A stretch of 64,000 nt of DNA from positions 34,038,001 to 34,102,000 of the forward strand of contig NC_135903.1 of the NCBI RefSeq assembly GCF_964194155.1, written 5' to 3'. Source of the DNA: Cetorhinus maximus (taxonomy: Eukaryota). Positions 4,671 to 33,200 of this stretch are shown piece by piece. The notes under the pieces were generated by a model. It did not search any database, was not told the origin of the DNA, and saw only the letters and a list, made by a program, of their open reading frames with translations. How positions within the stretch are numbered: the first letter of the stretch is position 1; each line of letters begins with the position of its first letter. The position numbers and the translations under genes are program-made.

Positions 4671-4681
4671 GGAACCATCAT

Positions 4682-5868: not shown

Positions 5869-6742
5869 TCCTGGAAGTCCAGATGTACTACATCTACAGG
5901 ATCCCCATTATCCACTTTGCTTGTCACATCTTCAAAGAACTCATTACTACTTCCTTAATAATGGATTCCAACAATTTCCCAATGACAGACGTTAAACTAA
6001 TTGGTTTATAGTTTTCTGCTTTCTGCCTCCCTCCCTTTTTGAATAATGGCATTATATTAGCATTTTTCCAATCCATTGGATTCTTTGCAGAATCCAGGGA
6101 ATTTTGGAATATTATTAACAATGCATGCACTATATCCATTGCCACTTTCTTTAAGACCCTGGGATGTAGGCCATCAGGTCCTGGGGGCTTGTCACCCTTT
6201 AATCCCAATAGTTTTCACAGTACTTTTTCTCTTGTGATGGTGATTGTTCTAAGTTCCTCCTTCTCTATACCCTCTGCTCTTCTTGTTACTATTGGGGTGG
6301 TGCTAGTGTTCTCCACTGTGAAAATTGAGGCAAAATGTTGATTAAACATCTCTGCCATTTCTGTGTTCCCCACTATTAACTCCCCAGTCTCATCCTCCAA
6401 TGGACCAACGTACACTTTAGCTACACTCTTTCCTTTTTTATACTTGTAGAAGCTTTTGCTATCAATTTTTACATTTTGCGCTAGATTTCTTTCATAATTT
6501 ACCTTTGCTTGTTTTATTGTTTTTTTAGTAACGCTTTGTTGATCTTTAAAAGTTTCTCAATCTTCCAGCCTGCCACTGACCTTTGCAATTTAGTATGCCT
6601 TAGTTTTTGCCTTTATGTTACCTTTAATTTCCTTGCTTAGCCATGGATGCTTTTTCCCCCTCTTACCATCTTTCTTCCTCTTTAGAATATATTTTACTTG
6701 GGAGGAATTGAATATCCCCTTAAATATCTGCCATTGCTCATC
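5869..6742 (-). mobile_element. CR1 ORF2 internal fragment
   Basis: KPPGPDGLHPRVLK, WKNANIMPLFKKG, NYKPISLTS motifs. Confidence 0.88.
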
Positions 6743-10140: not shown

Positions 10141-10439
10141 CATACTTGGGCTCAAGTCTTGGGCTCAGAACTATGTCCTCATTCCTTCACTGTTACTGGC
10201 TAAAACTCCTGGAAACACCCCTGTACATTTAGCTACACCACATGGTCGGCAGTGGTTCAAGGAGAGGGTTCTTCACCACCTTCTGAGGGGTAATTAGGGA
10301 GGAGAAACAAATTCTGGCCTTGCCAGTGACGCCCACATCCGATCAGGGAATAAATGAAGCCGAATACTTCAAAAGTACCTGTGAATGAGCCTAATATTTT
10401 TGTATGGTAAAGATGGACACGCTCCTGTAGGTCCGTCCT

Positions 10440-11469
10440 TTTCCAACTGCCCATCACCCCTCTCAGTCTGATCCACCCTCTTTACAAACTCTCCTCCCTT
10501 TCGGAAATGACAAAACACGTCACTTTCCTTCAGACACTTTCGCTTTGGGATGAAATTGACACCAGGTTAATTTCCAGAGAGAAAGTGACACGGACACTTT
10601 CCCGGGAGAGAGACAAGAAAGAAAGGATGAAAGAAAAGAGAGCGGGATCACTTTCGGACTCAGAATCGGAGCAGATCAAATATTCTTTCAATCCGACTCT
10701 GAAAATGGCTCCAGAAAACAACCGAGAAATGAGAAACTTCTCCCAGTTAAAGAGCAGATTGTGGGACAGGTCAATCGGAGCGGAGTCTGTCCCCATGAAG
10801 CGGTGTCCCTGGGCTGTGAGCCGAGCTCTCTGCAATGTCCAACCTGTGAAGTGTGAACAGGACAAGCGCCAGGTGAACACACCGCGGGGACACAGTGGAT
10901 TTCAAAGGGAATCGCTCTTCATGGGGCCCAATGTCAGCACTAAAAGCCGCCGCACCGGATCACCGCTGTCGCTCTCTCTATAATCCGGATGATAAAATCC
11001 AGCCCCCGATACATGTTCACACTGCCCCCAATTCAGAGCCTCCCTCTACACCACCTTCGTGCCCCAGGTGAGCTGAAGCCACACAACACTGAGCTGGAAC
11101 CGAGCGCTGCCTGTGATTTTCAACCGGGGATTTTCCACTCGCTGCTTCCGGAATCTCCAGCTTTTACATTCCTGACCTCAGAAAGGAAACCGGACAAACT
11201 ATTGATCTCCCGCAGCTCTTCCAAAAATCCTCGAGCCCGTTTTCACTTTTCGAATGTAATGCCACACATTAAAGCCGACAGCATGGCAGCGCCAGTGAGA
11301 GCACCGAGCAGACTCCACACTCACACTCACACCGTTCGGCAGCACAGGCGCTCGCTCCCGGATCACAAGCGGCTCCGATTCGACTTTCCCAGTTTAAATC
11401 CGCCGCGGAATCAAGAAGCCGTCGGTTTCTCATCTTTCACATCGGTGTTTCACTCTGGGTCGCTTGATC
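10440..11469 (+). promoter_or_regulatory. IFN promoter type A (CpG-rich): distal GAAAGTG cluster, NF-kB site, IRF element, TATA-like box
   Basis: GGGGATTTTCC at 11126-11136; TTTTCACTTTTC at 11240-11251 (GAAAAGTGAAAA on -); five GAAAGTG motifs within 10521-10655; TTTAAAT near 11393. Confidence 0.75.
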
Positions 11470-14400
11470 ATGGCTTTGGCGAGTATCTGGAGATTCTGGA
11501 TGGTGTTGCTCTTCTTGTCCGGGACCCTCAGTCTGGGATGTGAGAGGCTGCAATTACAGCAAGTTCTCAACACAGAGACTCTCAGCAAACTGAATGCAAT
11601 GGTGAGTTGAACCTGCAGCCAGAGCAGGAGGTGAATCACATTGTGTCCATTTGTTTTGAAAAATTATATCAGGAGAAGTCGTTTTCGTCCTTGCAACGGT
11701 TAATTGTCAGCGGACTGCAGTATTTCTGTTTCTCATGTGTTTGAAACAGTGTTTGTCTTTTCTCTCAGGGCGGTCGCTTCCCCCGACAATGTATAAGGGA
11801 AAGGTTGGACCTGAAAACCAAGCCCATGGATCTAGTGAGGCTTTCGGAGGGTTTGCAGGTGAGTGAACACTGGGGCTTATTTTCACTTATACTAACAGAA
11901 TTTTATGTAAAACCAGGTTGAGATCCACAGCCCTCGCCCAGAACGTACATAGCAGGTCGCCCACTGATGTGAAGATGTCGGTAGAGATAAGAGTCAGTTC
12001 CTGCTTAGAGTCAGGATTGATTACGTGCTGCGCAGTTTAAGATCCCTGGAGGGATGTCCACATGTCAGATCCACATCCCTGAAAAACTCAGCAGGTTTGG
12101 CAGCATCGGCGGAGAAGAAAAGAGTTGACGTTTCGAGTCCTCATGACCCTTCGGCAGAACTGAGTAAAGTTAGGAGAGGGGTGAAATATAAACTGGTATA
12201 AGGTGGGGGGTGGGGGCGGGGGAGAGAAGTTGGTGCGATGCGGGGGGTGGGGGGAGTGGTTGTAGGGACAAGCAAGCAGTGATAGGAGCAGATAATCAAA
12301 AGATGTCACAGACAAAAGGATCAAAGGGGTGTTAAAGGTGGTGATATTACCTAAGAAAATGTGCTAATTAAGAATGGATGGCAGGACACTCAAGGTACAG
12401 CTCTAGTGGGGCTGGGGTGGAAAGACTGACGACAGGGTATTACAGTTATAGATTTAAAAATAATGGAAATAGGTGGGAAAAGAAAAATCTATATAAATTA
12501 TTGGACCAAAACAAAAGGGAGGGGGATGAAACGGGAAGGGGGTGGGGATGGGGGAGGGAGTTTAAGATCTAAAGTTTTGAATTCAATATTCAGCCCGGAA
12601 GGCTGTAAAGTGCCTAGTCGGAAGATGAGGTGCTGTTCCTCCAGTTTGCGTTGGGCTTCACTGGAACAATGCAGCAAGCCAAGGACAGATATGTGGGCAA
12701 GAGAGCAGGGTGGAGTGTTAAAATGGCAAGCGACAGGGAGGTTTGGGTCTTTCTTGCGGTCAGACCGCAAGTGTTCTGCAAAGCAGTCACCCAGTTTGCA
12801 TTTGGTCTCTCCAATGTAGAGGAGACTGCATTGGGAGCAACGAATGCAGTGGACTAAATTAGGGGAAATGCAATTGAAATGCTGCTTCACTTGGAAGGAA
12901 TGTTTGGGCCCTTGGACGGTGAGGAAAGAGGAAGTGAAGGGGCAGGTGTTGCATCTTCTGCGTGGGCATGGGTAAGTGCCATAGGTGGGGGGTGAGGAGT
13001 AGGGGGTGATGGAGGAGTGGACCAGGGTGTCCCGGAGGAAACGATCCCTACAGAATGCCGCCAGGGGGGGTGAAGGGAAGATGCGTTTGGTGGTGGCATC
13101 ATGCTGGAGTTGGCAGAAATGGCGGAGGATGATCCTTTGAATGCGGAGGCTGGTGGGGTGATAAGTGAGGACAAGGGGGACCCTATCATGTTTCTGGGAG
13201 GGAGGAGAAGGCATGAGGGTGGATGCACGGGAGATGGGCCGGACACGGTTGAGGGCCCTGTCAACGACCGTGGGTGGAAAACCTCGGTTAAGGAAGAAGG
13301 AGGACATGTCAGAGGAACTGTTTTTGAAGGTAGCATCATCAGAACAGATGTGACGGAGGCAAAGGAACTGAGAGAATGGGATGGAGTCCTTACAGGAAGT
13401 GGGGTGTGAGGAGCTGTAGTCGAGGTAGCTGTGGGAGTCAGTAGGCTTGTAATGGATATTGGTGGACAGTCTATCATCAGAAATTGAGACAGAGAGGTCA
13501 AGGAAGGGAAGGGAAGTGTCAGAGATGGACCATATGAAAATGATGGCCATTAGCTTAGTTGGTTAGTCGAGAATAACGCCACCAGAGCGGGTTCAATTCC
13601 TTTCCCACTGAGGTAGATTTTGAGACCTGCCGCTTTGCCCTGCACCTGACATTGGGAGAAAATGGCAAACCACCACCGACAAATGAAAAACTGCCCAGAA
13701 ATCAGTTCAGGATGAAGAATCAACAGATAACAAGCCAAGGACATGCCTTCTGGCACAGCGCACCTCCCGCTGGCAGGGATACAATCAACTAATTGGCAGT
13801 CAATTAAATATTGAGAAGTCCAAAGACATTCTTTTCAACTACCGCCATTAACTCTGTTCCCTAGTTACTGACTTCAAAGCTCTACCGAACCAATGTCTGA
13901 TACTGACTCAGAATATTGGCCTTCTATTTAACCCACAGCTGAGCTTCCAACACCATCAGCAAGCTAACCTATTTCAACCTTCGTAATATCACCCATCTCT
14001 GCACTTGCCTCAGCTCATCTGATCCTGAAACTTTGATCCATGTATTTCTTCCCCTAGACTCCATTATTCTAATACTCTTCAGGCTGACCTCCCACCTTGC
14101 ACCCTCTATAAACTCGAACTCACTCAATTAACTGCTGCAATATATCTAAACTCTAATATATCTAAATATCCCAACGAGCACAATGTCCTAATCAGCCATC
14201 ACCTCAGTATTCTGAGATCTATTCTGAGGCAATGTAAGATCAAAAGGCAGCTGTAAGCCTCCAACTGGCTCCACAGTGGAAAGAACCTCATTTTGAATTC
14301 GTAAGATGAAAATGCTTTGCCTGATGTTTGGTTAAGTCTGTGCGTTTCTGGTGCCTTAATGGAGATTAGTTTGGGAATCTGTTTAAAATTATGATGGTAG

Positions 14401-15769
14401 TAATTTGTAGCCATGTGTGCATATTTTAACCTGTGTAAATGAATAAAATATTTCAATTAGTTTCATGTAAAACCTCAAGAACTGGTGGTCTGATTCCTGA
14501 ATTTAGAGTTGTATCTCAAACATAACACTTAAAATGATAGGTTATTACAGTTGTTTAAAGTTTTCCTCAGGGACTTTTAAATAACTCAGCTGCACCAACT
14601 GCATCGCCCCAGCTTCCAAACCAGCAACATCTCTTTTTTTATATACTCATGCTGGTTTTGCCCCTTGCATTTTTTGTAACTTCCTCCAGGCCCCAACAAC
14701 CCTTCCAGATCTCTGTGTTACATCCAATGTTCTCATCATGCTCATTCCAGATGTTCATTGCTCCATCACTGTGTAGCTGTGCCTTCATCTGTCTGGCCCT
14801 TAAGCTCTGGAATTAACTCCTTCCTAACTCTCTCTCCTCTGTAATTGCCTCCTAAAAGCCTAACTCTGAGCAAACATTCCACCTCCTTTTGTGGCTGGGT
14901 GTAAATTTTCTTTGATAATGCCCCTGTGAACCTTCTTGAGGTTTTTCACTATGTTAAATGTCCTACATAAATGCAAGTTGTTATTGTTGGTATCATGGGA
15001 CCAATTGGAACTGTACATAGACTGGTCTAAATGGGGTGTGATGTCACCATCAGCAGAGAGTCTCAAAGTGTTTGGCCAGGTGATAGATCTTCAGTGCCAG
15101 TTGGACTGTAGAGTTTGCATCAGTACTAGCCTGTACCACCTAGTAACTACATTTCAGGGAATATAATAATCAGTTAAATAGAGGCAGCAACTTTATTGAT
15201 GTGATGTAATTAGTCACTTTCTCCTGAGCAACAGCAAGGATTAACTGTGAAATTTGCACCAACCCTGACTGGTTACACAGGAACAGGTCCTCTCTAATGT
15301 CCTTGTGAATATTTCTCACAGGCCCAGGACAGGATCCAGATTGTCCATCAAACCCTGCGTCACATCAGTAAGATCTACAGCATGAACCTGGGCTCAGTCA
15401 CGTGGCCCCGAGACAAGGTGGAAAACGTCCGGCTTCTCCTGGATCGGCAGCTCAGCGAGCTGGAAGAATGTGTCAGGGAACCAGGGTCAGAGCACAAGAT
15501 GAGGAGAAACTCCGCCATTCAAAAATACTTCAGGAAACTTCGAAAGTTTCTCAAACAGAAGGTGAGACAATAAATAATTGACAGTGTGATTACTGCCATG
15601 TCGTTCATTCAGCTGCATTTAAATCTGTTCATTCTCTAATGAGGTTTCCTGAATGATTTCTCTTTTTCAGGGATTCAGTGACTGTGCCTGGGAAATAATC
15701 CGCACTGAGACCAGGACCCGTTTACAACAGCTCCTTTTCGTAACGGCACAAATCAACAGAAGAAACTGA
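11470..15769 (+). CDS. IFN1: Type I interferon gene A, 4 exons: 11470-11601, 11769-11858, 15322-15561, 15671-15769 (186 aa); the divergent paralog
   Basis: Spliced translation MALASIWRFWMVLLFLSGTLSLG|CERLQ...NAM / GGRFPRQC...EGLQ / AQDRIQIVHQTL...EECV...YFRKLRKFLKQK / GFSDCAWEIIRTETR...RRN*. GT-AG phase-0 introns, hydrophobic signal peptide, 4 Cys, CAWE motif of type I IFNs. Confidence 0.93.
12082..13547 (-). mobile_element. 5'-truncated Penelope-like retroelement in intron 2 of gene A
   Basis: Open 350-aa frame: FLDLSV..YKPTDSHSYL..SSHP (RT thumb), CxxC linker and GIY-YIG endonuclease (VHCIRC..LYIGET..EH). Confidence 0.9.
12123..12161 (-). ncRNA. Minimal hammerhead-ribozyme-like motif of the Penelope element (variant core)
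   Basis: Minus strand AGUU CUGCCGA A GGGUC AUGAG GACUC GAAA CG UC AACU: stem I AGUU/AACU, stem II GGGUC/GACUC, palindromic ACGU stem III; core is CUGCCGA rather than CUGANGA. Confidence 0.65.
13548..13770 (+). mobile_element. tRNA-derived SINE-like element
   Basis: A-box-like TAGCTTAGTTGG and B-box GGTTCAATTCC; body contains GAAAATGGCAAACCAC. Confidence 0.5.
13900..14990 (+). mobile_element. Old L2-like LINE 3' remnant interrupted by an LTR-like block (about 14230-14605)
   Basis: Ends with an L2-type tail (..CCTGTGAA..TAAATGCAAGTTGTTATTGTTG); highly degenerate. Confidence 0.5.
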
Positions 15770-16864: not shown

Positions 16865-17430
16865 TAATAGCTCAAATCAGCAGAAGAAACTGAAAAAGAC
16901 ATGTTTACTACAGGCTGGGAGCAATGAATATTTATTTTTAAAAACTTTCAATTTAAAGCTATTTCCATATATATTTGTAACAAATTTTATATTTTATTGT
17001 ACTGATCACAGAACAATCAGTGACATGATGGTATTATTTATTTTATTTATTGATTGATATTTATTGCTGTGACATTTTCACCTGATGTAATCCTAAACCT
17101 TCAGTGGCTGGGGTGTCTGCTCTGGAATTTACTGTCAGGCTTTCAAGATATGGGTTTGCAGACCTATAAACCCTGGGCTGCACTGACCTTTCCATTTCTC
17201 CCTTCCTAAGTTAAGTGGCCAACTTTCCAATCTATTTCAGCCACTGTAATTTATTGATCTTTATTGTTGTGATGTCTTCATATAATGAAATATTACAGTG
17301 TTATACAATGTATAACGTGAGTTTTTCACAATAACTTATTTAATGATATTTATTAAGATTTGGGGAACACACAATGTTTTTTGTAACTGGAAAATTTTAT
17401 ATACAATGAGAGCCTTTTCCTGTAAATAAA
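16865..17430 (+). pseudogene. Stub of interferon exon 4 end plus 3'UTR of a B-type gene
   Basis: ATAGCTCAAATCAGCAGAAGAAACTGA (IAQISRRN*) followed by sequence matching the 3'UTR at 26394-26930, including AATAAA at 17425. Confidence 0.8.
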
Positions 17431-17959
17431 TTATTTTCAATATTACGCATTAACTGAAATGATGTTCGTTTGTCAGTTCTGTGGATTGGTTTTCCATACT
17501 CTGTATAAATGCTCTGGGTTCTCTTACCTGCTGCCTCTTCCTGTCAGTCCTTCTCTGTTCTCCTCTCCTTTCTCCACAATTGGATTTTCCCTCACCCGTT
17601 GGAACTGTGACCACATTGTGAACCAAACAGGCCTGATTTATCATCTTTTAACCCTCTGCTTCTCAAGGCCATATTCCAGCTCCAAATGAGAGAGGACTGA
17701 ACGTTATGTTCAGGACAGACAAGTGGAAAATGGAGGCAATAATTGGAAATGGACAGATGGAGAAATGGAATAGTTGGATGTAGGAGATGACTGGAGTGTC
17801 AGCCATAGTGAAGATATGGGGACAACAGACAATGGGGTTAAAAGTGACATCAGGCAATGAGTAGGAAGGAGATGACTGGAGAGTGGGGATGAAAATCTCT
17901 TATTTCGCATTGTGGTTTACACCTTCTGAAAATCTGCATGTTAAACACTGTCTGCATTA

Positions 17960-18750
17960 CATAAGAACAGAAAAAAAATAGAAGGATTAGGCCATTTGGC
18001 CACTCAAGCCTGCTCCACCATTCAATAATATTCTGACTGATTTGATTGTGGCCTGAAATTCACTTCCCTGCCTTCCACCCATAACATTTGACTCCTTTGT
18101 TGATCAAATTCTATATAACTCAGTTTTGGATATATTCAGTAACCCAACCTCTACTGTTCTCTGGGGTGAAGAAATTCAAAGGTTAATGACACTCGGCACA
18201 AAAGAAATCCTCCTCATCTCCATGTCACATGCAGTTGCCGTACTCTGAAACTGTGACCCTGAATCCCCCTCCCGCCCTCACCCCATTCCAGATTCCTCCA
18301 GAGAGGAAATATCTCAATACCTACCCGTTCAAATCTCCTCACAATCTGAAATGATTCAATGACATCACCTCTCATTCTTCAAAACTCGAAGGAGTATAGG
18401 CTCAACCTGGTTAAGTTTGCTTCATAAACCAACTTCTCTTTCCAGGAATCAACCTGGTGAACCCTCTCTGAAGTGTCTCCAATGCAAGTTAATCGCTGCT
18501 TAAATAAGGAGACCAAAGCTGTACATAGTACTCCAGGCCTGGTCTCACAAATGGCCTGTAGAGTTGAAGCAAAACTTCCCTAATTGTATTCTTCATCCTC
18601 TTTGCAATAAAGGACAACATACCATTTACCTTTCCAATTAATTGCTCTACCTGTTTGCTAAATTTTCATTGCTCAGGTCCAAGGACACCCAGGTCCCTCT
18701 GCACTGAAAGATTCTGTGTTCTTTCTCCATTTAAACAACATTCTGACTTT
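17960..18750 (-). mobile_element. CR1 3' remnant embedded in every IFN 3'-flank copy
   Basis: Minus-strand LLQLYRPFVRPDLEY and RMRGDVIE motifs in the paralogous copies near 27450-28220, 31260-32030, 38800-39560, 42600-43380, 49250-50000, 53010-53780 and 62740-63490. Confidence 0.8.
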
Positions 18751-19764
18751 CTGCTGGGCACAGCAACGGCTAACTTGTGTCTTAAATTACATCAGTCACT
18801 ATATATCTAAAGTACTTTATAAGCTGTTGAGTGCTTTGAGACACCTGTGGTCAGGAAGGGCACAATGTGAATGCAAGCCTGTTTTGAAAAAAATATCATC
18901 GAGAAAGCTGGGCCTACACACAAAACTGCCCTCACTCCAGGGTGAATTTATCAGCAGTGCAGTTGTTTACAGGCCTTCCAAAGGGCCCCAAAAAATAAAC
19001 TGGATGATTTGGGTTTGAGTACAGCAACAGACATGTGTTAAAAGGTTTGCAAAGCAACTTTATTAATTTACAAATACAATAACTATTGCATTCCAATTCC
19101 AAAAAAGTGGGAATGAACCAATCCAATTTCCATCACCATTAATTTCTACAAAACAGCAAAGGTTGCTTCCCATTCAAGGGACAAGCATACTGACTTGGAA
19201 CTATTTACCATTTCTTCACTGTTACTGGCTAACACTCCTGGAAAACCCTTCCCAACACCTCTGTAAATTCACCTACACCACATGAACGGCAGCAGTTCAG
19301 GTGTTCAAGGGGGCGGTTCATCACCACCTTCTGTCGGGTAATTAGGGAGGAGCAACAAATTCTGGCCTTTCCAGAGACGCCCACGTTCCATCAAGGAAGA
19401 AATGAAGCCAAATTATGCAAAAGTAGCTGTGAATGATCCGCATATTTTAGTAATGTAAAAATGCACACGCTCCCGTAGGTCCTTCCTATTTCCTCTAATG
19501 TCACTCGCCAGTGTTTTTAATATTCTTCCTTCAGTTCCCTGACCCTCCTTCCGCCTCCGCCTTCAATAATTACAATTCCCACTGTTCTATTCGCCAATAA
19601 CAGCATTGTTGTAAATTGTAGTTTCTCGCGTGTCTCCAGTTGGGGAATGTGGGATCCCGCTCCCACATCCACCCGGACGGTAGATTTTGGTTACACTTCC
19701 AGCTGAGAGGGATTTGGTGACATTTCCTATGTACCCGGGCATTTACCGAATACCCTAAAGCTTT

Positions 19765-20793
19765 TCCCAACTGCCCCTCACCCCTCTCAGTCTGATCCAC
19801 CCTCTTTACAAACCCTCCTCCCTTTCGGAAATGACAAAACACGTCACTTTCCTTCAGGCACTTTCGCTTTGGGATGAAATGGACACCAGGTTAATTTCCA
19901 GAGAGAAAGTGACACGGACACTTTCCCGGGAGAGAGACAAGAAAGAAAGGATGAAAGAAAAGAGAGCGGGATCACTTTCGGACTCAGAATCGGAGCAGAT
20001 CAAATATTCTTTCAATCCGACTCTGAAAATGGCTCCAGAAAACAACCGAGAAATGAGAAACTTCTCCCAGTTAAAGAGCAGATTGTGGGACAGGTCAATC
20101 GGAGCGGAGTCTGTCCCCATGAAGCGGTGTCCCTGGGCTGTGAGCCGAGCTGTCTGCAATGTCCAGCCTGTGAAGTGTGAACAGGACAAGCGCCAGGTGA
20201 ACACACCGCGGGGACACAGTGGATTTCAAAGGGAATCGCTCTTCATGGGGCCCAATGTCAGCACTAAAAGCCGCCGCACCGGATCACCGCTGTCGCTCTC
20301 TCTATAATCCGGATGATAAAATCCAGCCCCCGATACATGTTCACACTGCCCCCAATTCAGAGCCTCCCTCTACACCACCTTCGTGCCCCAGGTGAGCTGA
20401 AGCCACACAACACTGAGCTGGAACCGAGCGCTGCCTGTGATTTTCAACCGGGGATTTTCCACTCGCTGCTTCCGGAATCTCCAGCTTTTACATTCCTGAC
20501 CTCAGAAAGGAAACCGGACAAACTATTGATCTCCCGCAGCTCTTCCAAAAATCCTCGAGCCCGTTTTCACTTTTCGAATGTAATGCCACACATTAAAGCC
20601 GACAGCATGGCAGCGCCAGTGAGAGCACCGAGCAGACTCCACACTCACACTCACACCGTTCGGCAGCACAGGCGCTCGCTCCCGGATCACAAGCGGCTCC
20701 GATTCCACTTTCCCAGTTTAAATCCGCCGCGGAATCACGAAGCCGTCGGTTTCTCATCTTTCACATCGGTGTTTCACTCTGGGTCGCTTGATC
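19765..20793 (+). promoter_or_regulatory. IFN promoter type A copy
   Basis: Near-identical to 10440-11469; kB site at 20450-20460. Confidence 0.72.
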
Positions 20794-20925
20794 ATGGCTT
20801 TGGCGAGTATCTGGAGATTCTGGATGGTGTTGCTCTTCTTGTCCGGGACCATCAGTCTGGGATGTGACAGGCTGCAGTTACAGCAAGTTCTCAACACAGA
20901 GACTCTCAGCAAACTGAATGCAATG
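20794..20925 (+). CDS. Extra interferon exon 1 (signal peptide + first helix) upstream of gene B; alternative first exon or truncated gene
   Basis: MALASIWRFWMVLLFLSGTISLGCDRLQLQQVLNTETLSKLNAM with intact GTGAGT donor; homology to intron 1 stops about 12 nt later; no exon 2 before the next exon 1. Confidence 0.75.
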
Positions 20926-21224
20926 GTGAGTTGAACCCAAAACACCGAGTCGGTAATTAGGTTGAGGGGAGACAGGGAATCAGCCTCCAGGAGAGATTAA
21001 ATCTGGATTTGGGTGAAGGAACAAATGGGATCTGAGAGGAAATTGGAAAGCAGACATTGAGGAGGAGGGCGCTCAATGACGGAAGAAGCGGAATGTGAAC
21101 CTGAAGGGGGAGAGGGGGCAAATCAGAGACAGCCCATCAGTAACAACCATTCAGAATAATAGAGCGACTTTAAGGTCTCAAGGTGCCTCACGGGAATGTT
21201 ATACAGCAACATTTGTTGTGGTGG

Positions 21225-21930
21225 GCACAGCAAGATTTCAAACTTTGCAGATGATACAAATTTTGGAAATGTTGTCAACTGTGATGCGGATGGTGCTGAA
21301 CTTAAAAACGACGTTGGCATGTTTGTGGATTGGGCAGACAAGTGGCAGATGAAGTTCAATGTAGAGAAATGTGAGGTGATACGTTTTGGGAGGCAAGATA
21401 AGGCGAGACCTTATAAAATAAAGGGAGTGACTCTACAGGATGTGCAGGAACAGAGGGACCTCGGTGTATATGCGGATTGGTCATTGAAGATGGCAGGGCA
21501 TATTGAGAGCAGTTAATAAAGAATATACTAGCATAGGCTTTATTAATTGTGGCGTTGAGTAGAAGAGAAAAGAGGTCATGTCGAACTTGTATAAGACACC
21601 AGTTAGGCATCATCTGGAGTACTGTTCTGGGCACCATACTTGAGGAAGGATGTGAGGGTATTGGTGAGAGTACAGAGGAGGTTAACAAGAATCATTCCCA
21701 GGATAACGAACTGTAGCTACGCGGGAGGATTGGAGAGGTTGTCACTGTTTTCCTTGGAGAAAAGAATGTGGAGATTAGGCTTAATTGAGGAACTCAAGAT
21801 ACCCTGTGGGGTATGGACAGCGTAAATAATAAGAAACCGTCTCCACGAAAGCGAACATCAAGAAATATAGGGCACAGGTTGAAAATAGTTGGCAAAGGGA
21901 GTAAATGTGATATGAGGAGCAATTTTTGAA
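21225..21930 (+). mobile_element. CR1 RT remnant between exon 1a and promoter B (copy at about 56495-57200)
   Basis: SNFADDT, WADKWQMKFNVEKCEV, EQRDLGV motifs. Confidence 0.85.
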
Positions 21931-22540
21931 CCCAGGGTGTGATTGGAGCAAACTTCACACAGTGCTTTCAATATTTGAAAATGTGGATGAGAATTTTAAA
22001 ATGAAGGTATTTCTTATCCAGGAGACTGACGCTGTGTTTTGTTTGATCTCCCTGAGGGGATGCATGTCGAACAGAAATAGAAAGGGACCTAAAATAGATT
22101 CTTGGGGACACAGAGGCTAAACGTTGGGGCTGGGTGGGTGATGTTGTTAAGAGATGCCATTCTGGGGGTTTACAGTCTGCATTTAGACAGTGGGAGCCAG
22201 GCAGTGTATCCCCAACCAGCAGGCCCATGGTGGAGAAAGTTGAATTCTGATGTTCATGTCGACTATGTCACAGGACTAGAAGGAGGAGAATGTTTTACAT
22301 ATGTCACGGGCATGTTGAATGTAATTTATGAATTTGCCTATCACCTTATGGAGATCTTGTGATGCAATGGGTCGGACCTGCTTTCAGGCAGAGAACTCAA
22401 GAACAAGTACAGCCTTATAATCTATCAATGTAACCAAATGCCCCTTCATTGCCCCCTTAATGCGAATCCGTTCAATTTGGAGGAAGCATGATAATTTTCC
22501 CAAAACATTGTTAAAACTGTTGATCCAAATTTCTAGAACT

Positions 22541-22943
22541 TTGAGCTGGAACCGAGCGCGGGTTGTGATGTTCTCTCGGGCATCTTACAGTCACTGGATC
22601 AGGAATCTCCAGATTTCAGGTTCCTTATCTCAGACAGGGAGCAGACAAACTCTTCCTCTCCTGAAGTCCTTCCAAAACTCCAGCAACCAGATTTCACTTT
22701 TCGAGTGTAATAGCAACATCGCCAGTCTCCCCTCTTCACAGCGACAGCAACTCCCAGCACAATTCTCACACAAACATACACAAACAGGACTGGACATTCA
22801 GGCGGTCGCTCCGGCTTCACAAGCGGCAGCATTTCCACTCCTCGTGTTTCATTCGCTTCAAAGGAATAGACTTTCGGTGTGGTCCCAGATCCGCTCAGTG
22901 TCTGATCCTCAGCTCGGGGTGTTTCACTCTGGGTCGCTTGATC
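22541..22943 (+). promoter_or_regulatory. IFN promoter type B (diverged paralog of the proximal type A promoter)
   Basis: Shares TGAGCTGGAACCGAGCGC, GGAATCTCCAG and TTTCACTTTTC (22692-22702) with type A; kB site degenerate; unrelated further upstream. Confidence 0.65.
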
Positions 22944-25900
22944 ATGGCTTTGGCGAGTATCTGGAGATTTTGGATGGTGTTGCTCTTCTTGTCCGGGACC
23001 CTCAGTCTGGGATGTGACAGGCTGCAGTTACAGCAAGTTCTCAACACAGAGACTCTCAGAAAACTGAATGCAATGGTGAGTTGAACCTGCAGTCAGAGCA
23101 GGAGGTGAATCACATTGTGTCCGCTTGCTGTGAAATGTCACATCAGGGGAAATGTTTTGCGATTTGTCATTTTGTGCAATGAATTGTCTGTGATTCTCCA
23201 GTATTTGAGTTTTTGGGGCTGATTGTAACAGTGATTGTTTTCCCCTCTCAGGGCGGACCCTTTCCCCGACACTGTATAAGACAGAGACTCTCACTGAAAA
23301 CCAAACCCTTGAACCTGGTGAAACTCTCGAAGGAATTAGAGGTGAGTGAACACTCGGTTCATTTGAGTCACACAGGGCTTTTATACAAAGTAAGATCAAC
23401 AACCGGATCGGAAACTTCCACATCAGGAATTTGAAACAGAGTGAAATGTACCCATTGTGAATGTAGGAGCAGTCTCACTTATTGTATTTCACTCACTATC
23501 TCACTCATGAACTATATCACTCTCTCTAACCGCACTCACTACCCCTTATCTCCAACTCTCTCCCTCCCTGATATTATGTCCCTCCCGCTAACTACCTGCT
23601 CTGGGAACTATCCGACTGGATCTCCCATCTCCTTTTCCTGCAGGGCCTCTAGAATATTCCGTGCAGACCACTGCCTGATGGGCCTGTTGTCAAAGATGTT
23701 TCTCTGCCTAAGCATTTCTACACGGGATAGGTGGTGAGTCAGGTTCCAAAGGCTTCGAGTGTTCGCGACAACAAGGCCAGTTCCATCCTTTGCAACACGT
23801 GGGACAGGTTGAAAGTCAGCACTTGCAGTTTGCGTTCCAAGGGTCCACGCACAGCTTGATGCAGCAAGACCCAAATGTAGTCATCAGGATGAGGGCGATG
23901 TTCAGTGCGTTTTGTCCTCTGATCATTGACTATGTGAAAACTTCTCAACTTTTCTCAACCTAACACCCTTTAATTTTCTCACTGCCTCTAACCACCTCAC
24001 TTCCTCTAATCATCTTATTCCCTGTAACAATTTGCCTCCCTCGAAACATCTCACTCCTCAGCTGCACTGAATGACTTTGGGGCATGAACCACGCAGGCAG
24101 GTTAGGCCATAGGATCATAGAATGATCCTGTGCTGAAGGAGACCGATTGGGCAGAATGGCCTGTTTCTGTGCCACGTTTCCGATCAACTACCTGGTGGAA
24201 AAATATGTTAGTAGGTACGCACTAACCAGCATTCATATATTCAAGAAAAATCACCTTTCCCAAACTTGATTGAGTTATGTGATAATGTAGAAGAGGGTGT
24301 TCATGAGTTTAGTGCGCTTAATCTTCTGCTGATGTCATCATACCTCTGCAGCACTTTGAATGAAAGATATAAATTATTCCCGCTCTCATCCCCCATTACA
24401 ATGCAAAAATCTTCTCTGACTATTTATCCAATTCTCTCTAGAAAGTTATTATTGAATCTGCTTTTGCTGTTTTGTAAATCAATCCATACGCACACTTTTA
24501 AAAGACTAATCATCACAAGATCCAGCGCACAATCCTCATCAACACTCTCTGCTGCATTATCGCATAACTCAATCAAGCTGGGTAAGGATAATTTGATGGT
24601 AAAGATGTCTCCCCACAGATCATTGTATCTGAAGTTTTCCCACCACCCAAAATGGTCTAACTGGCCTGTATTTGTTGGGTTTATCCCTCTTCCATTTTTG
24701 AATGGGATGTAAGTATTTGAAATCTTCTGGTCCGCTGCCATCATGTCCCTCATATCTAAAGAGGACTGGAGGAAAGCGGCCAGAAGTGTCATTTCAACCC
24801 TTGCTTTCCTCAGCAATCTCAGCTGTATTCCGACCAGATCAGGTGACTTTCCTAACCTGAGTGCTGCCAATATTTTACGTAACTCCTCTTTATCTATTTT
24901 AATCCTACCCAATTTCTCTACTCGCTCCCCCTGCACTGTGACTTTTGAAGTATCTGCTTGTGAAGTGAAGACAAATTCCAAGAACTGGTTTAGATCCTCC
25001 GCCATGTCCTTTGTGTCCCACAAGAAGATTTATTTTTTGCTCACTAATCAACACAAACAAACATTTATTTACATGCTTATTAAAAGTTTTTAGCTTCCCT
25101 CTTACGTGACCTGCTCATCAATTCTCACGCATTCTGTTTATTCCTTATTTCTTTTGATAACTTTTCTCCATATTGGCTGCATTCAGCTTGGTTCCTCACT
25201 CAGCTAGGAGCCTAATGTTTCACATAAGGCTTCGTTTTCTGTTTTGTTTTAATGTCTACATCTTTCGGCGATGAGGTCATTGACCTTGCCATGCCCTTCC
25301 TTTCTGCTTCATTGAAAGGAGTCCAGTCTGCAACCATAACATCACCACTTAAAAAGAGCCTCAATTGCTACTTTCCTCCTGAGTTAGCACTATTTAAGAG
25401 GAGATGGTGGCTTAGTGGTAGATTCACAGGGTTAATAATTCATGGCCTAGGCTAATGCTCTGGGTACCTGAGTTCATGCCCCATCACACAGCTGGTGGAA
25501 TTTTAATTCAATCAATAAACGTGGAATATAACACTAGTGTCAGTAATACTGACCATGCAACTATCATGGATATTTGTAAAACCCTTCTGATTCACTAATG
25601 ACTTTTAAGAAAGGAAATGTGACTTCTGCATCTGGACTGGATGACATGTCACTCTCAGCACATGGTCGAATCTTCACTGTCCTTTCAAATATTCAGTTCA
25701 AGGGACATTAGGGATGGACATGTAATGCTGGCTTTGCCAGTGATGCCCACATCCCATGAATGTCTAAAGGAAAATAGAATCCTTGATTCAAATACACCTG
25801 GGCCAGATCCCGTTTAAATGCATAAAATTAATCCTCCCCCTTTTGCCCATTTTCAGCTCTAATTGTATTTTGTTATTTAACATAGTCTGTTCTAAAATTA

Positions 25901-26393
25901 AAGGTAAACATGTCCTTTCCAATGTCATTCTCTACATTATACACAGATACAGGACAGGATCCAGATTGTCCATCAAACCCTGCGTCACATCAGCAAGATC
26001 TACAGCATGAACCTGGGTTCAGCCACATGGGCCCAGGACAAGGTGGAAAACCTCCGGCTTCTCCTGGATCGGCAGCTCGCTGAGCTGGATGAATGTGTCA
26101 GGAAACCAGGATCAGAGCACAAGATGAGGAGAAACTCCGCCATTCACAATTACTTTAGGAAACTGGAAAAGTTTCTCAAACAGGTGGTAGGTCAATTGAT
26201 AAATGACAATGTGATTGCTGGCATGTAGTTCATTTCACCACATTTAAATCTGCGCATTCTCTAATCGGTTTCCCTGAATAATTTTCTTTTTCAGAAATTC
26301 AGTGACTGTGCCTGGGAAATAATCCGCAATGAGACCAGAGCCCGTTTACAACAGCTCCTTTTCATCATAGCACAAATCAGCAGAAGAAACTGA
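22944..26393 (+). CDS. IFN1: Type I interferon gene B, exons 22944-23075, 23252-23341, 25947-26186, 26295-26393
   Basis: Intact 186-codon spliced ORF, GT-AG sites, exon 2 GGPFPRHC..., exon 4 KFSDCAWEIIRNETR...SRRN*. Confidence 0.92.
23580..23890 (-). mobile_element. L1/Tx1-like ORF2 remnant in intron 2 (copies in genes C, D, E)
   Basis: Minus-strand peptide IRQWSARNILEALQEKE..DPVGWFPEQ resembles the Tx1-type ORF2 C-terminal region; recognised from memory, not searched. Confidence 0.4.
24400..25390 (-). mobile_element. Old CR1 ORF2 remnant in intron 2 (copies in C and E; mostly deleted in D)
   Basis: MAEDLNQF..VFT, LGKSP(D/G)LDGI..RLL, FLQSSLD motifs. Confidence 0.75.
25400..25775 (+). mobile_element. 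tRNA-derived SINE upstream of every B-type exon 3
   Basis: A box TGGCTTAGTGG, B-box-like GAGTTCATGCCC, and a 3' tail (ATTAGGGATGG..GCCAGTGATGCCCACATCCC) shared with the LINE tail at 19320-19400; copies near 29180, 36740, 40525, 47200, 50965 and 60685. Confidence 0.7.
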
Positions 26394-26932
26394 GAAAGAT
26401 GTTTAGAACAGACTGGGAGCAATGAATATTTATTTTAAAAACTTTTAACATATAGCTATTTATATATATATTTGTAACAAATTTTATATTTTATTGTACT
26501 GATGACAGAACAATGAGTGACATGATTGGATTATTTATTTATTTTATTTATTCATTTATTTATTGATATTTATTGCTATGATATTTTCCCCTGATGTAAT
26601 CCTAACACTTCCGTGGCTGGGGTGTCTGCTCTGGAATTTACTGTCAGGCTTTCAAGATATGGGTTTTCAGACCTATAAACCCTGGGCCGCACTGACCTTT
26701 CCATTTCTCCTCTCCTAAGTGGCCAACTTTTCAATCTATTTCAGCCACTGTAATTTATTGATCTTTATTGTTGTGATGTCTTCATGTAATGAAATGTTAC
26801 ATGTTATTTAATGTGTAATGTGAATTTTTAATGATAATTTATTTATTGATATTTATTAAGTGTTGGCGAACAGAAATATTTTTTTGTAACTGGAATATTT
26901 TATACACAATGAGAGCATTTGGTACAAATAAA
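26394..26932 (+). promoter_or_regulatory. IFN 3'UTR with AU-rich elements and poly(A) signal (repeated after each B-type exon 4)
   Basis: Overlapping ATTTA pentamers near 26530-26572 and AATAAA near 26927; equivalent tracts near 30340, 37872, 41682, 48320, 52092 and 61820. Confidence 0.7.
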
Positions 26933-29753
26933 TTGTTTTCAATATTACGCATTGACTGGAATGATGTTCATTTTTCAATTCTGTCGGTTGGCTTTCCATA
27001 CTCAGTATGAATGCTCTGGATTCTCCCACCTGCTGCCTCTTCCTGTCAGCCCTTCTCTGTTCGCCTCTTCTGTCTCCACAATCAGATTTTCCCTCACCCG
27101 TTGGAACTGTGAACCTATTGTGAACCGAACTGCCCTGATTTATCATCTTTTACCCCTCTGCATCTCAACGCCACATTCCAGCTCCAAAGGAGAGAGGCCT
27201 GAGCTTGATGTTCAGGAGAAAAGTGGAAAATAGAGGTATAAATTAGAAATGGACAGATGGAGAAATGGAATGGGTGGACATAGAAGATGACTGGAGTGTC
27301 AGCCTCTGCGAATATATGGGGACATCAGACAATGGGGTTGAGAATGACATCAGGTAATGAGTAGGAAGGAGAATGAGTGCAGAGTGGGGATGGAAATCTT
27401 TTGTTTCACATGGTTGTTTACACCTTCTGAAAATCTGTATGATAAATACTGTCTGCATTACATTAGAACAGAAGAAAAAAGAGAAGTAGGGCATTTGGCC
27501 ACTCAAGCCTGCTCCACCATTCAATAAGTTCCGACGGATTTGATTGTGGCCTTAAATCTACTCCCCTGCCTGCCACCTATAACCTTTGACTCCTTTGTTG
27601 ATCAATCCCATCTAACTCATACTTGAATATATTCAATATCACAATCTCCAACTGTACTCTGAGGTGGAGATTTAAAAGATTAATGACACTCAGCACAAAA
27701 TAAATCCTCCTCATCTCCGTCTCATGTGCATATTGAAACTTTGGCCCCCAGTTAGAGACTCCCACAGAGAGGAAACACCTCAACATCTACCCGGTCAAAT
27801 CTCCTCACAATCTTAAATGATTCAATGACATCACCTCTCATTCTTCCAAACTCGAAGGAGTATAGGCTCAACCTGGTTACGATTGCTTCATAAACCAACT
27901 TCTCTTTCCAGGAATCAACCTGGTGAACCCTCTCTGAAGTGTCTCCAATGCAAGTTAATCGCTGCTTAAATAAGGAGACCAAAGCTGTACATAGTACTCC
28001 AGGTCTGGTCTCACAAATGGCCTGTAGAGTTGAAGCAAAACGTCCCTACTTCTATTATTCATCCTCTTTGCAATAAAGGACCACATACCATTTACCTTTC
28101 CAATTAATTGCTCGACCTGTTTGCTAAATTTTAATTGCTCAGGTCCAAGGACACCCAGGGCCCTCTGCACTGAAAGATTCTGTGTTCTTTCTCCATTTAA
28201 ACAACATTCTGACTTTCTGCTGGGCACAGCAATGGCTAACTTGTGTCCAACATTACATCAGTCACTATATATCTAAAGTACTTTATAAGCTGCTGAGTAC
28301 TTTGAGACACCTGTGGTCAGGAAGGGCACAATGTGAATGGAAGCCTGTTTTGAAAAAAATATCATAGAGAAAGTTGGGCCTACACACAAAACTGACCTCA
28401 CTCCAGGGTGAATTTATCAGCAGTGCAGTTGTCTACAGTCCTTCCAAAGGGCCCCAAAAAATAAACTGGATGATTTGGGTTTGAGCACAGCAACAGACAT
28501 GTGTTAAAAGATATGCAAAGCAACTTTAGTAATTTACAAAGACAATAACTATTGCACTCCAATTCCAAAAAAGTGGGGATGAACCAATCCAATTTCCATC
28601 ACCATTAATTTCTACAAAACAGAAAACCGACCCCAAAAGTGGTAACAAGTTGTGAACGTCAGTAAGTCTACAACGCTCTAACCAACTTCAATATTTACTG
28701 TCCACCACCGACAAACACTGGGGTCAGTGTGTACCATGTACATGGTGAACTGCAGGATCTCACCAAAGCCCCTTCAATGCCGCTTCCCAAACTGACGACT
28801 TCTACAACTCAGAAGAACAAGGGTAGTAGGTGCAAGGGACCAGCAGAAAAGTTCGTTTCCCATTCAAGGGACAAGATACTGACTTGGAACTATTTCCCAT
28901 TTTTTCACTGTTACAGGCTAACAATCCTGGAAAACCCTTCCCAACACCTCTGTAAATTCTCGTACACCACATGAATGGCAGCAGTTCACGGGTTCAAGGG
29001 GGAGGTTCATCACCACCTTCTGTTTTGTTTTAATCTCTACATTTTTGGCGATGACGTCATTGACCTTTCGATGCCCTCCCTTTGTACTTCATTGAAAGGA
29101 GTCCAGTCTGCAACCATAACATCTCCAGTTAAAAAGAGCCTCAATTGCTCCTTTTCTCCTGAGGAAGCACTATTTAAGAGGAGATGGTGGCTTAGTGGTA
29201 GATAGTGGTGGTAGATAGTGGTGGTAGATTCACAGGTTTAATAATTCATGGCCTAGGCTAATGCTCTGGGTACCTGAGTTCATGTCCCATCACACAGATG
29301 GTGGAATATTAATTCAATCAATAAACGTGGAATATAACACTAGTGTCAGTAATACTGACCATGCAACTATCATGGATATTTGTAAAACCCTTCTGATTCA
29401 CTAATGCCTTTTAAGAAAGGAAACGTGACTTCGGCTCCTGGACTGGATGACATGTCACTCTCAGCACATGGTCGAATCTTTACTGTCCTTTCAAATATTC
29501 AGTTCAAGGGACATTAGGGATGGGCATCTAATGCTGGCTTTGCCAGTGATGCCCACATCCCATGAATGAATAAAGGAAAAAAGAATCCTTGATTCAAATA
29601 CACCTGGGCCAGATCCCCTTTAAACGCACTAAAATTAATCCTCCCCCTTTTGAACATTTTTATCTCTATTTATAATTTGTTCTTTAACATAGTCTGTTCT
29701 AAAATTAAAGGTGAACATGTCCTCTCTAATGTCATTCTCTACATTATACACAG

Positions 29754-30200
29754 ACACAGGACAGGATCCAGATTGTCCATCAAACCCTGCGTCACATCAG
29801 CAAGATCTACAGCATGAACCTGGGTTCAGCCACATGGGGCCACGACAAGGCGGAAAACTTCCGGCTTCTCCTGGATCGGCAGCTCGGTGAGCTGGAAGAA
29901 TGTGTCAGGAAACCAGGATCAGAGCACAAGATGAGGAGAAACTCCGCCATTCACAATTACTTTAGGAAACTGGAAAAGTTTCTCAAACAGGAGGTAGGTC
30001 AATTGATAAATGACAATGTGAATGCTGGCATGTAGTTCATTTCACCACATTGAAAACTGCTCATTCTCTAATCGGTTTCCCTGAATAATTTTCTTTTTCA
30101 GAAATTCAGTGACTGTGCCTGGGAAATAATTCGCTATGAGACCAGAGCCCGTTTACAACAACTCCTTTTCATCATAGCACAAATCTGCAGAAGAAACTGA
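29754..30200 (+). pseudogene. Orphan interferon exon 3 (29754-29993) + exon 4 (30102-30200), open frame, intact splice sites
   Basis: TQDRIQ...KQE / KFSDCAWEIIRYETRARLQQLLFIIAQICRRN*. No promoter or exons 1-2 between gene B and this cassette. Pseudogene status is uncertain. Confidence 0.75.
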
Positions 30201-33200
30201 GAAAGACATGTTTAGCTGAGACTGGGAACAAAGATTATCTATTTAAAAATTTTTAACATAAAGCTATCTATATATATATTTGTAACAAATTTTATATTTT
30301 ATTGTACTGATGACAGAACAATGAGTGACATGAGGAGATTATTTATTTTATTTATTTATTTATTTATTGATATTTGATGCTATGTCATTTTCCTCTGATA
30401 TAATCCTAACCCTTTAATGGGTGGGGTGTCTGCTCTGGAATTTACTGGTAGGCTTTCAAGATATGGGTTTTCAGACCTATAAACCCTGGGCCGCACTGAC
30501 CTTTCCATTTCTCCTCTCCTAAGTGGCCAACTTTTCAATCTATTTCAGCCACTGTAATTTATTGACCTTTATTGTTGTGATGTCTTCATGTAATGAAATG
30601 TTACATGTTATTTAATGTGCAATGTGAATTTTTAATGATAATTTATTTATTGATATTTATTAAGTGTTGGCGAACAGATAAATTTTTTTGTAACAGGCAA
30701 ATTTTATACACAATGAGAGCCTTTGGTACAAATAAATTGTTTTCAATATTACGCATTGACTGGAATGATGCTCATTTTCCAATTCTGTCGGTTGGCTTTC
30801 CATATTCAGTATAAATGCTCTGGATTCTCCCACCTGCTGCCTCTTCCTGTCAGCCCTTCTCTGTTCTCCTCTTCTTTCTCCACAATCAGATTTTCCCTCA
30901 CCCTTTGGAACTGTGAAACTATTGTGAACCGAACTGCCCTGATCTATCATCTTTTACCCCTCTGCTTCTCAACGCCACATTCCAGCTCCAAAGGAGAGAG
31001 GACTGAGCGTGATGTTCAGGAGACAAGTGGAAAATAGAGGTATAAATTAGAAATGGACAGATGGAGAAATGGAATGTATGGTCATAGAAGATGACTGGAG
31101 TGTCAGACTCTGTGAATATATGGGGACATCAAGACAATGGGTTTGAGAATTACATCAGGCAATTAGTAGGAAGGAGAATGAGTGCAGAGTGGGGATGAAA
31201 ATCTTATATTTTGCATTGTTGTTTACACCTTCTGAAAACCTGTATGATAAATACTGTCTGCATTACAATAGAACAGAAGAAAAAAGAGAAGTAGGCCATT
31301 TGGCTTGTAAAGCCTGCTCCACCAGTCAATAAGATTCTGACTGATTTGATTGTGGCCTTATATCTACTCCCCTGCCTGCCACCTATAACCTTTGACTCCT
31401 TTGTTGATCAATCCCATCTAACTCAGACTTGAATATATTCAATAACACAACCTCCACTCTTCTCTGAGGTGATTAATTTAAAAGATTAATGACACTCGGT
31501 GCAATAGAAACGCTCCTCATCTCCGTCTCACGTGCAGTTTCCACATATTGAAACTTTGGCCCCCAGTTACAGACTCCCCCAGAGAGGAAACACCTCAACA
31601 TCTACCCTATCAAATCTCCTCACAATCTTAAATGACTCAATGACATCACCTCTCATTCTTCAAAACTCGAAGGAGTATATGCTCAACCTGGGTAAGATTG
31701 CTTCATAAACCAACTTCTCTTTCCAGGAATCAACCTGGTGAACCCTCTCTGAAGTGTCTCCAATGCAAGTTAATCGCTGCTTAAATACTGAGACCAAAGC
31801 TGTATATAGTACTCCAGGCCTAGTCTCAAATATGGCCTGTAGAGTTGAAGCAAAACTTCCCTACTTCTTTTCTTCATCCTCTTTGCAATAAACGACAACA
31901 TACCATTTACCTTTCCAATTAATTGCTCTACTGTTTGCTAAATTTTCATTGCTCAAGTCCAAGGACACCCAGGTCTCTCTGCACTGAAAGATTCTGTGTT
32001 CTTTCTCCATTTAAACAACATTCTTACTTTCTGCTGGGCACAGCAACGGCTAACTTGTGTCCTGCATTACATCAGTCACTATATATCTAAAGTATTTTAT
32101 AAGCTGCTGAGTGCTTTGAGACACCTGTTGTCAGGAAGAGCACAATGTGAATGCAAGCCTGTTTTGATAAAAATATCATAGAGAAAGCGGGGCCTACACA
32201 CAAAACTGACCTCAGTCCAGGGTGAATTTATCAGCAGTGCAGTTGTTTACAGTCCTTCCAAAGGGCCCCAAAAAATAAACTGGATGATTTGGGTTTGAGC
32301 ACGGCAACAGACATGTGTTAAAAGGTTTGCAAAGCAACTTTATTAATTTACAAAGACAATAACGATTGCATTCGAATTCCAAAAAAGTGGGGATGAACCA
32401 ATCCAATTTCCATGACCATTAAATTCTACAAAACAGAAAACCGACCCCAAAAGTGGTAAGAAGTTGTGTACGTCAGGAAGTCTACAACGCTTTAACCAAC
32501 TTTAATATTTACTGTCCACCACCGACACACACTGGGATCAGTCTATACCATGTACATGGTGAACTGCAGGATCTCACCAAAGCCCCTTCAACACCGATTC
32601 CCAAACTGACGACTTCTACCACCCAGAAGAACAAGGGTAGCAGACGCAAGGGACCAGCACCAAATTTCGCTTCCCATTCAAGGGAGAAGCATACTGACTT
32701 GGAACTATTTCCCATTTCTTCACTGTTACTGGCTAACACTGCTGGAAAACCCTTCCCAACACCCCTGTAAATTCACCTACACCACATGAACGGCAGCAGT
32801 TCAGGGGTTAAATGGAGCGGTTCATCACCACCTTCTGACGGGTAATTAGGGAGGAGCAACAAATTCTGGCCTTTCCAGAGACGCCCACGTTCCATCAAGG
32901 AAGAAATGAAGCCAAATCATGCAAAAGTAGCTGTGAATGGGCCGCAGATTTTTGTAAGTTAAAAATGGACACGTTCCCGCAGGTCCTTCCTATTTCCTCT
33001 AATATCACTCGCCAGTGCTTTTAATATTCTTCCTTCAGTTCCCTGACCCTCCTTCCGCCTCCGCCTTCAATAATTACAATTCCCACTGTTTTATACGCCA
33101 ATAACAGCATTGTTGTAAATTGTAGTTTCTCTCATGTCTCCAGTTGGGGAATGTGGGATCCCGCTCCCACATCCACCCGGACGGTAGATTTTGGTTACAC

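Follow-up and report, generated by a model that had tools for sequence, protein, structure and literature searches.

The window considered here, a stretch of 64,000 nucleotides (nt) of Cetorhinus maximus contig NC_135903.1 (34,038,001–34,102,000, forward strand), contains a type I interferon (IFN) gene unit in which a single exon 2 is flanked by two first exons (1a and 1b, behind upstream modules A and B) and by two terminal cassettes (exons 3–4 and exons 3′–4′). Coordinates without further mark are positions in the window. The explanation that best accounts for this flagged unit, to which a probability of a little under one half is given (about 0.47), is a four-exon IFN gene in a tandem array, with its likely start in module A and exon 1a likely joined to exon 2, exon 1b and exons 3′–4′ probably being unused leftovers of partial duplication. 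A reading made from the sequence alone had proposed that promoter choice and alternative last exons could yield up to 2x2 isoforms. This proposal is not supported: the arrangement is found in one of 22 units, the spare terminal cassettes decay neutrally, the spare cassette is missing in all three sister copies and the two first exons lie two residues apart. It is highly probable that the flagged unit is not a selected 2x2 system.

The survey on which these counts rest covers a region of 452 kb around the window; positions beyond the window are given relative to it, with L labels. The plus strand of this region carries 22 units with an exon 2, 11 spare exons 1 and seven spare exon 3–4 cassettes. 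A spare exon 1 and a spare cassette occur together in the flagged unit only, the other six spare cassettes following genes with a single exon 1.

Exon layout and coding potential

The order and positions of the seven exons given in the sequence-only reading were borne out; each exon is open, has GT donors and AG acceptors, and is in phase 0. All lie on the plus strand. The coding part of exon 1a (20794–20925; 132 nt, 44 codons) ends at a GT donor and has a private base, A20851 (L20I). Exon 1b (22944–23075), also of 132 nt and 44 codons with a GT donor, is 97.7% identical to it. Exon 2 (23252–23341) is 90 nt long. Exon 3 (25947–26186, 240 nt) is followed by the coding part of exon 4, including the stop codon (26295–26393), and by a 3′ untranslated region (26394–26932) with 11 ATTTA motifs within 700 nt past the stop and an intact AATAAA at 26927. 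In the second cassette, exon 3′ (29754–29993) is open and has the private bases G29839, C29843 and C29851, and exon 4′ (30102–30200), likewise open, shares N166Y and S183C with a cassette at 41446. Because the exon lengths are 132, 90 and 240 nt, any exon join stays in phase 0. The exon 3 donor of the flagged unit carries a private A>T change at −2 (26185; E154V), seen in no other unit, which may weaken it.

The RefSeq model of the unit (P0032) is one gene composed of exon 1a, exon 2, exon 3 and exon 4. It has four phase-0 exons and three introns and encodes a protein of 186 amino acids (aa) with the conserved cysteines of the family (C24, C52, C124 and C159). Both exon 3 and exon 3′ score above the cut-off of 26.8 bits for the Pfam interferon family (PF00143), at 46.3 and 44.5 bits. 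A homolog search returned 31 clusters, every one labelled as a shark or ray; across the aligned stretch, the one with the label Cetorhinus maximus shows 100% identity. Four exons and three introns are described for type I IFN genes of cartilaginous fish (PMC5332411). Judged by its sequence, the flagged unit is a member of this gene family.

At the protein level exons 1a and 1b differ only by I20L and S39R. Whichever first exon serves, the predicted proteins thus differ by two residues, and promoter choice would add almost no protein diversity. A swap to the spare cassette would alter 10 residues. The residues proposed as diagnostic of the alternative joins are present, but not all of them are specific to this unit: ETLSK is the common form, and RYET..ICRRN is found also in the cassette at 41446. 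The last 74 nt of exon 1a are identical to nine other exon 1 copies, and exon 2 is identical in 12 array copies. Because these sequences and residues recur in other copies, the junction test put forward earlier is confounded.

Module A as the likely start

Module A (19763–20793, plus strand) comprises a conserved promoter and a long 5′ leader. It occurs 22 times in the genome, once per plus-array gene, and all 22 genes keep it. It contains one match to the generally known kB consensus, at 20451, and a TTTAAA at 20717. Downstream of exon 1a lies a spacer (20938–22541) that begins with about 200 bp unique to the 11 doubled units and continues as a broken reverse-transcriptase fragment of a long interspersed nuclear element (LINE; RVT_1, E=0.00035, below the curated cut-off); AATAAA occurs in it at 21417 and 21515. 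Module B (22542–22943) is an old copy of proximal module A, 75% identical to it and without a kB match or TTTAAA. The duplicated stretch as a whole, 22542–23087 against 20414–20937, is 75% identical overall and 97.7% identical within the exon. Both the first 200 bp of the spacer and module B occur 11 times in the genome, always in the array.

The two modules evolve differently. Across six lineage representatives, variation is 0.8–1.8% in module A, 3.4% in its upstream flank, 3.8–6.9% in the spacer, 6.5% in module B and 3.2% in exon 1b; in the same units the LINE part of the spacer varies by 6–7%. The kB match is kept in 21 of 22 A copies and in none of the 11 B copies, and TTTAAA in 19 of 22 as against none of 11, although each match taken singly is weak against shuffled sequence (p=0.11 for kB and p=0.04 for TTTAAA). 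CpG observed/expected (o/e) is 0.96–1.21 in proximal module A, 0.65–0.83 in module B and 0.37 in intron 2. A cluster of IRF elements was expected in distal module A and was dropped, the patterns giving one match where 0.89 were expected.

Evidence of transcription comes from contigs of relatives, in runs guessed to be RNA: X15–X18 from one organism (B) and X19 from another (C). These contigs are not assignable to a unit and show neither starts nor levels. Module A is covered by contigs from all five runs. In a contig of X16, 20924 is spliced to exon 2 and on to exon 3, and a contig of X19 covers all four exons in spliced form; A-type first exons are used in relatives. Cover of module B in the same runs is 0–0.26, which is not counted as evidence, contig gaps being uninformative. 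In the sequence-only reading, module B was the start assumed by default. The balance of evidence lies instead with module A, which is conserved and carries the relatives' RNA, whereas module B drifts like spacer; module A is likely the working start.

The leader 19899–20924 is spanned unspliced by relatives' contigs, the farthest of which reach back to about 19882–19899. In X17 and X18, which come from two different studies, cover ends alike at 19899, hinting weakly at a start some 900 nt before the ATG. Of what had been named promoter A, most (~19899–20793) lies under relatives' RNA contigs and is at least partly 5′ leader. In the window copy the 895 nt from 19899 to 20793 contain 12 ATGs. 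The open reading frames (ORFs) of the leader include one of 118 aa (19951–20307) and one of 184 aa that overlaps the start codon out of frame; a Pfam search of these two long ORFs gave no match.

On the preferred explanation, transcription would start in module A and the cap-proximal donor of exon 1a would be joined to exon 2. For the end of the transcript the intact poly(A) signal at 26927 would serve; exon 3′ lies 2.8 kb farther downstream.

History of the doubled first exon

A doubled promoter and exon 1 (the A-B layout) is present in 11 of the 22 plus-strand genes. DNA run X5 of organism B bridges the junction of exon 1a with the spacer (20907–21347, with 31 letters on the short side) and that of the spacer with module B (22284–22680). 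Since both junctions are bridged, the layout is common to organism B. The same DNA differs from the window at 13 of 504 letters in module A, and at 43 of 425 and 53 of 397 letters in the two bridging pieces of spacer and module B. In a tree rooted on the most divergent A-B lineage, with four genes of divergent exon 2 left out, the 11 A-B genes enclose a single clade (support 72) made up of the seven genes that have one exon 1 and the common exon 2. Because genes lacking B nest inside A-B genes, the layout looks ancestral and module B appears to have been dispensable at least once. Several origins of the single-exon-1 genes were considered and dropped; the single clade corresponds to one event.

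Exon 1b is destroyed in two further units (L008:2837–3170 and L015:1913–2245), where an inverted templated copy of spacer replaces its 3′ half and donor and leaves a pyrimidine-rich AG, a usable-looking acceptor, before exon 2. Run X1 contains this inversion joint; X1 may be the assembly's own source.

The layout may be traced to an old duplication of 546 bp, covering the proximal promoter and exon 1, with a LINE-derived spacer of 1.6 kb between the copies. Gene conversion likely holds exon 1b near-identical to exon 1a while promoter B drifts, and one crossover between exons 1a and 1b likely gave the seven single-exon-1 genes, in which A was retained and B lost. The doubled first exon is thus old and common to a related organism, and it could still serve as a second promoter.

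The spare terminal cassette

The spare cassette (29018–32837, plus strand; 3.8 kb) is 92.6% identical to 25237–29022 and carries neither a promoter nor an exon 1 or exon 2. It begins at a 6-bp microhomology junction, TTCTGT (29018–29023), where pre-promoter sequence is joined to intron 2. All seven spare cassettes start at this same TTCTGT and form one clade on flanking DNA (support 1.0); for these two reasons they appear to trace to a single rearrangement, and tandem duplication or deletion of a gene's 5′ half would both yield the junction. The event, separate from the duplication of exon 1 and presumably one of microhomology-mediated repair, would have left a headless exon 3–4 cassette that unequal crossing-over then copied and lost.

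Four of the seven spare cassettes are broken, three by a shared TAA within exon 3′ (window position 41302) and one by loss of the donor (51746); one of the TAA-bearing cassettes has also lost its stop codon, and R111W and R116W are present in two further spare cassettes. To obtain the neutral expectation, the rate given by the flank tree was applied either in full or at 0.6 of its value, with gene conversion ignored. Three disrupting events were seen in the spare cassettes where 2.1–3.4 are expected under neutrality, as against one in 15 attached cassettes (the seven most divergent being left out), where 4.5–7.5 are expected (P 0.005–0.06). The probability that the cassette at 29754 would remain intact under neutrality is 0.33–0.52, so its open frames are weak evidence of use. 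Five of its seven amino-acid changes are not present in 53 other shark IFNs.

Within the higher-order repeat, none of the three sister copies of the flagged unit has a spare cassette, and the sequence there continues directly to the next promoter. Attached cassettes that precede a spare have the usual acceptor and AATAAA in seven of seven cases, by simple motif comparison rather than a splice-site model; to this extent the proximal acceptor and poly(A) signal show no weakening. No spare cassette is used by the RefSeq models among those listed (15 of the 22 cluster members). The spare terminal cassette of the flagged unit is most likely partial-duplication debris. Such debris had been offered earlier as the neutral alternative for the whole locus. 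It fits the 3′ half well; for the 5′ half, whose doubled layout is shared by 11 of the 22 genes and by organism B, it is one possibility, and splicing of exon 1a to exon 2 is plausible.

Among attached genes, that beginning at L024:7971 has lost its exon 4 acceptor (AG to CG, L025:1308–1309), and so some attached genes are broken too.

Weighing the explanations

A number of observations weigh against a gene that starts in module A, skips exon 1b and leaves its second cassette unused. The relatives' join of 20924 to 23251 would look alike from single-exon-1 genes, so that skipping of exon 1b is a candidate only. The exon 1b donor is only 176 nt upstream of exon 2, and two AATAAA lie within the spacer, downstream of exon 1a. 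Module B retains part of its CpG content (o/e 0.65–0.83, against 0.37 in intron 2). It also has a candidate acceptor, the AG at 22740–22741, with 14 of 17 pyrimidines as against 12–13 for the real ones, which if used would make exon 1b an out-of-frame internal exon in the flagged unit. Gene conversion by itself could preserve unused A modules, and in two copies of exon 1a the signal peptide has a change that was seen nowhere else (L20I and G18R). In the two genes with a destroyed exon 1b, exons 3–4 carry seven amino-acid changes, four of them not seen in other sharks, a hint that these genes are not rescued by exon 1a (Fisher p=0.38). By analogy with sDscam arrays, in which downstream cassettes also splice, cap-proximal choice is not assured (PMC4835542). 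For the terminal cassettes, the ratio of nonsynonymous to synonymous substitution fails to separate spare from attached copies (5 synonymous and 12 nonsynonymous changes versus 5 and 11, p=1.0), and a pooled test of residues unseen in the 53 other shark IFNs likewise gives no class separation (8/17 versus 8/25, p=0.35).

Several of these points are shared by the explanation that comes next, which we regard as possible at roughly half the weight of the preferred one. On this account the first exon in use would be 1b, or else the A-B units would be crippled; transcripts from module A would end in the spacer, which holds two AATAAA, or splice via 22741 out of frame, protein would come only from B, if at all, and the 3′ cassette would again be debris. 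The short intron between exon 1b and exon 2 suits it. The acceptor at 22741 recurs in 8 of 11 B copies, but the introns contain several unused candidate acceptors that are equally good. Module B holds an IRF-core match at 22699 besides its residual CpG content, yet it varies as fast as the LINE spacer and is without the kB match and TTTAAA. The odd exon 3–4 substitutions in the two genes lacking exon 1b would follow if that exon were needed; three divergent A-B genes, however, have intact exons 3–4 despite the signal-peptide changes F15S and S21I in exon 1b. The RefSeq models, which use exon 1a in seven and exon 1b in one of the eight A-B units among those listed, were rejected as evidence of splicing, since these picks also fit the best match to homologs.

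Somewhat less probable again, and on balance unlikely, is that each module works as a promoter, the input being a kB site in A and IRF sites alone in B, each first exon being spliced to exon 2 and the 3′ cassette being debris. Alternative promoter use would then alter regulation and hardly the protein. A layout that occurs in 11 of 22 genes, looks ancestral and is common to organism B would be expected of such a system, as would first exons that are both open in 9 of the 11 units, and teleost IFNa genes are described as using two promoter regions (PMC5127012, PMC3828176). Module B nevertheless shows no sign of constraint; it is deleted in seven genes, exon 1b is destroyed in two more, and gene conversion accounts for the identity of exon 1b without selection.

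The selected 2x2 system, in which promoter choice and alternative last exons would give four IFN isoforms from the flagged unit, is very improbable. Its seven exons are all open and in phase 0, the 3′–4′ cassette retains an acceptor, a donor and AATAAA and would change 10 residues, and the private A>T at 26185 could be taken as a weakened proximal donor. The layout is nevertheless confined to one of 22 units and one of four sister copies; breakage has reached four of the seven spare cassettes, as expected at the neutral rate; no weakening is seen in the proximal acceptor or poly(A) signal; and the two-residue difference between exons 1a and 1b and the listed RefSeq models, none of which uses a spare cassette, count against it. 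It is equally improbable that the old doubled promoter provides two working starts with different inputs which, together with joins of exon 2 to exon 3′ in the flagged unit, give four cytokine variants; that this would be a young protocadherin-like design arising from duplication leftovers is no less remote.

An assembly error in this repetitive region is the least credible explanation, for although the locus has repeats of 69–73 kb at 97–99% identity, and the spare-cassette junction is not among the joints listed for organism B (nor for the positive control X1, so that this comparison carries no weight), the 452 kb contain no N, the duplicated cassettes are 7% apart, the junction recurs in seven diverged copies, organism B DNA bridges both A-B junctions and X1, possibly the source of the assembly, contains the exon 1b inversion joint.

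Relation to known systems

Tandem first exons ahead of shared exons are known from UGT1, and alternative terminal exons from calcitonin/CGRP and from the secreted and membrane ends of IgM. The flagged unit resembles the latter genes in having, behind the first 3′ cassette, a second one that bears an acceptor and its own poly(A) signal; here, however, the proximal acceptor and poly(A) signal are unweakened, and the distal cassette is a 92.6% duplicate of a kind broken in four of seven cases and missing in sister copies. In the 5′ arrays of protocadherins and chelicerate sDscam, tandem first exons with promoter-like upstream sequence likewise precede shared exons (PMC4835542). In contrast to those arrays there are two cassettes here rather than dozens, and one of the promoters drifts. 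The variable exons of protocadherin, sDscam and UGT1 loci encode distinct protein parts, in the first two distinct recognition domains, whereas those of the flagged unit differ by the two residues given above. The unit therefore departs from an alternative-last-exon gene on two defining tests and from a protocadherin-type array on one. Cap-proximal joining is the model for protocadherins (PMC4835542).

For teleost IFNa (IFNphi1) genes, two promoter regions are described, together with a long 5′ leader in which start codons are numerous (PMC5127012, PMC3828176). The likeness lies in the long leader with many upstream ATGs, and possibly in a distal and a proximal start inside module A. Here, by contrast, the second module is a duplicate that includes a complete signal-peptide exon, so that no signal-less isoform follows from it, and relatives' contigs cross the leader unspliced. 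Given a leader of about 1 kb that holds many upstream ATGs, sharks may also have the long-leader transcript known from teleost IFNa.

The closest likeness is to the cartilaginous-fish type I IFN clusters (PMC5332411, PMC6640115), with which the locus shares PF00143, four phase-0 exons, a length of 186 aa and tandem clustering. The shark family is reported to evolve by birth and death (PMC6640115). What differs here is a cluster of about 38 units, a higher-order repeat of 69–73 kb and a doubled promoter and exon 1 in 11 genes. In mainly open literature at abstract level, no description was found of shark IFN genes with a doubled first exon or a spare terminal cassette, nor of the cluster size or the repeat; the supplementary gene tables of PMC6640115 may bear on copy number.

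If the four-exon gene starting in module A is the true explanation, the finding is one of ordinary turnover in a tandem immune-gene array. It also serves as a caution, since recent duplication and gene conversion supply open frames, GT/AG sites and phase 0 at no cost. The array offers a natural splicing experiment, in which A-B units, units without B and units with a destroyed exon 1b stand side by side and could show whether a downstream donor of identical sequence is passed over in favour of the cap-proximal one. Were the 2x2 system real, interferon diversity would arise by exon choice, a case not found described in the literature searched.

The interferon array

The plus array is built from higher-order repeats of 69–73 kb with 97–99% identity (window 10400–64000 and L007–L022), in about 3.5 copies of some six genes each; the difference in period corresponds to the 3.8-kb spare cassette. 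A second IFN cluster lies on the minus strand (L028–L038; G000:C26:34190294–34286448), where exon 1 and exon 2 differ from those of the plus array and exon 3 is 91–95% identical. It contains 16 exons 1, 17 exons 2 and 18 exon 3–4 pairs, and both of its headless exon 3–4 fragments are broken. The whole cluster comprises about 38 gene units, 22 on the plus strand and 16 with an exon 1 on the minus strand.

Upstream of the flagged unit, a divergent paralog at 10439–15769 has an exon 2 only 73% identical and exons 3–4 about 91% identical to those of the flagged unit. Its module A and exon 1 are nonetheless 97–99% identical, and identity falls about 47 nt into intron 1, much as it would where a conversion tract ends. 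A fragment of a third kind, at 16867–19160, consists of the last 27 nt of exon 4, the 3′ untranslated region and 2.3 kb of downstream sequence, without an acceptor; fragments of this kind sit behind three of the four genes carrying a divergent exon 2. The first AATAAA of the gene at 11470–15769 is at 17425, within this fragment, which may provide its poly(A) site. Nearer the start of the window, 4361–8767 holds nested and duplicated LINE-like pieces, among them a 90% match between 5214–6743 and 7221–8767 and a 125-bp inverted copy at 4361/7220.

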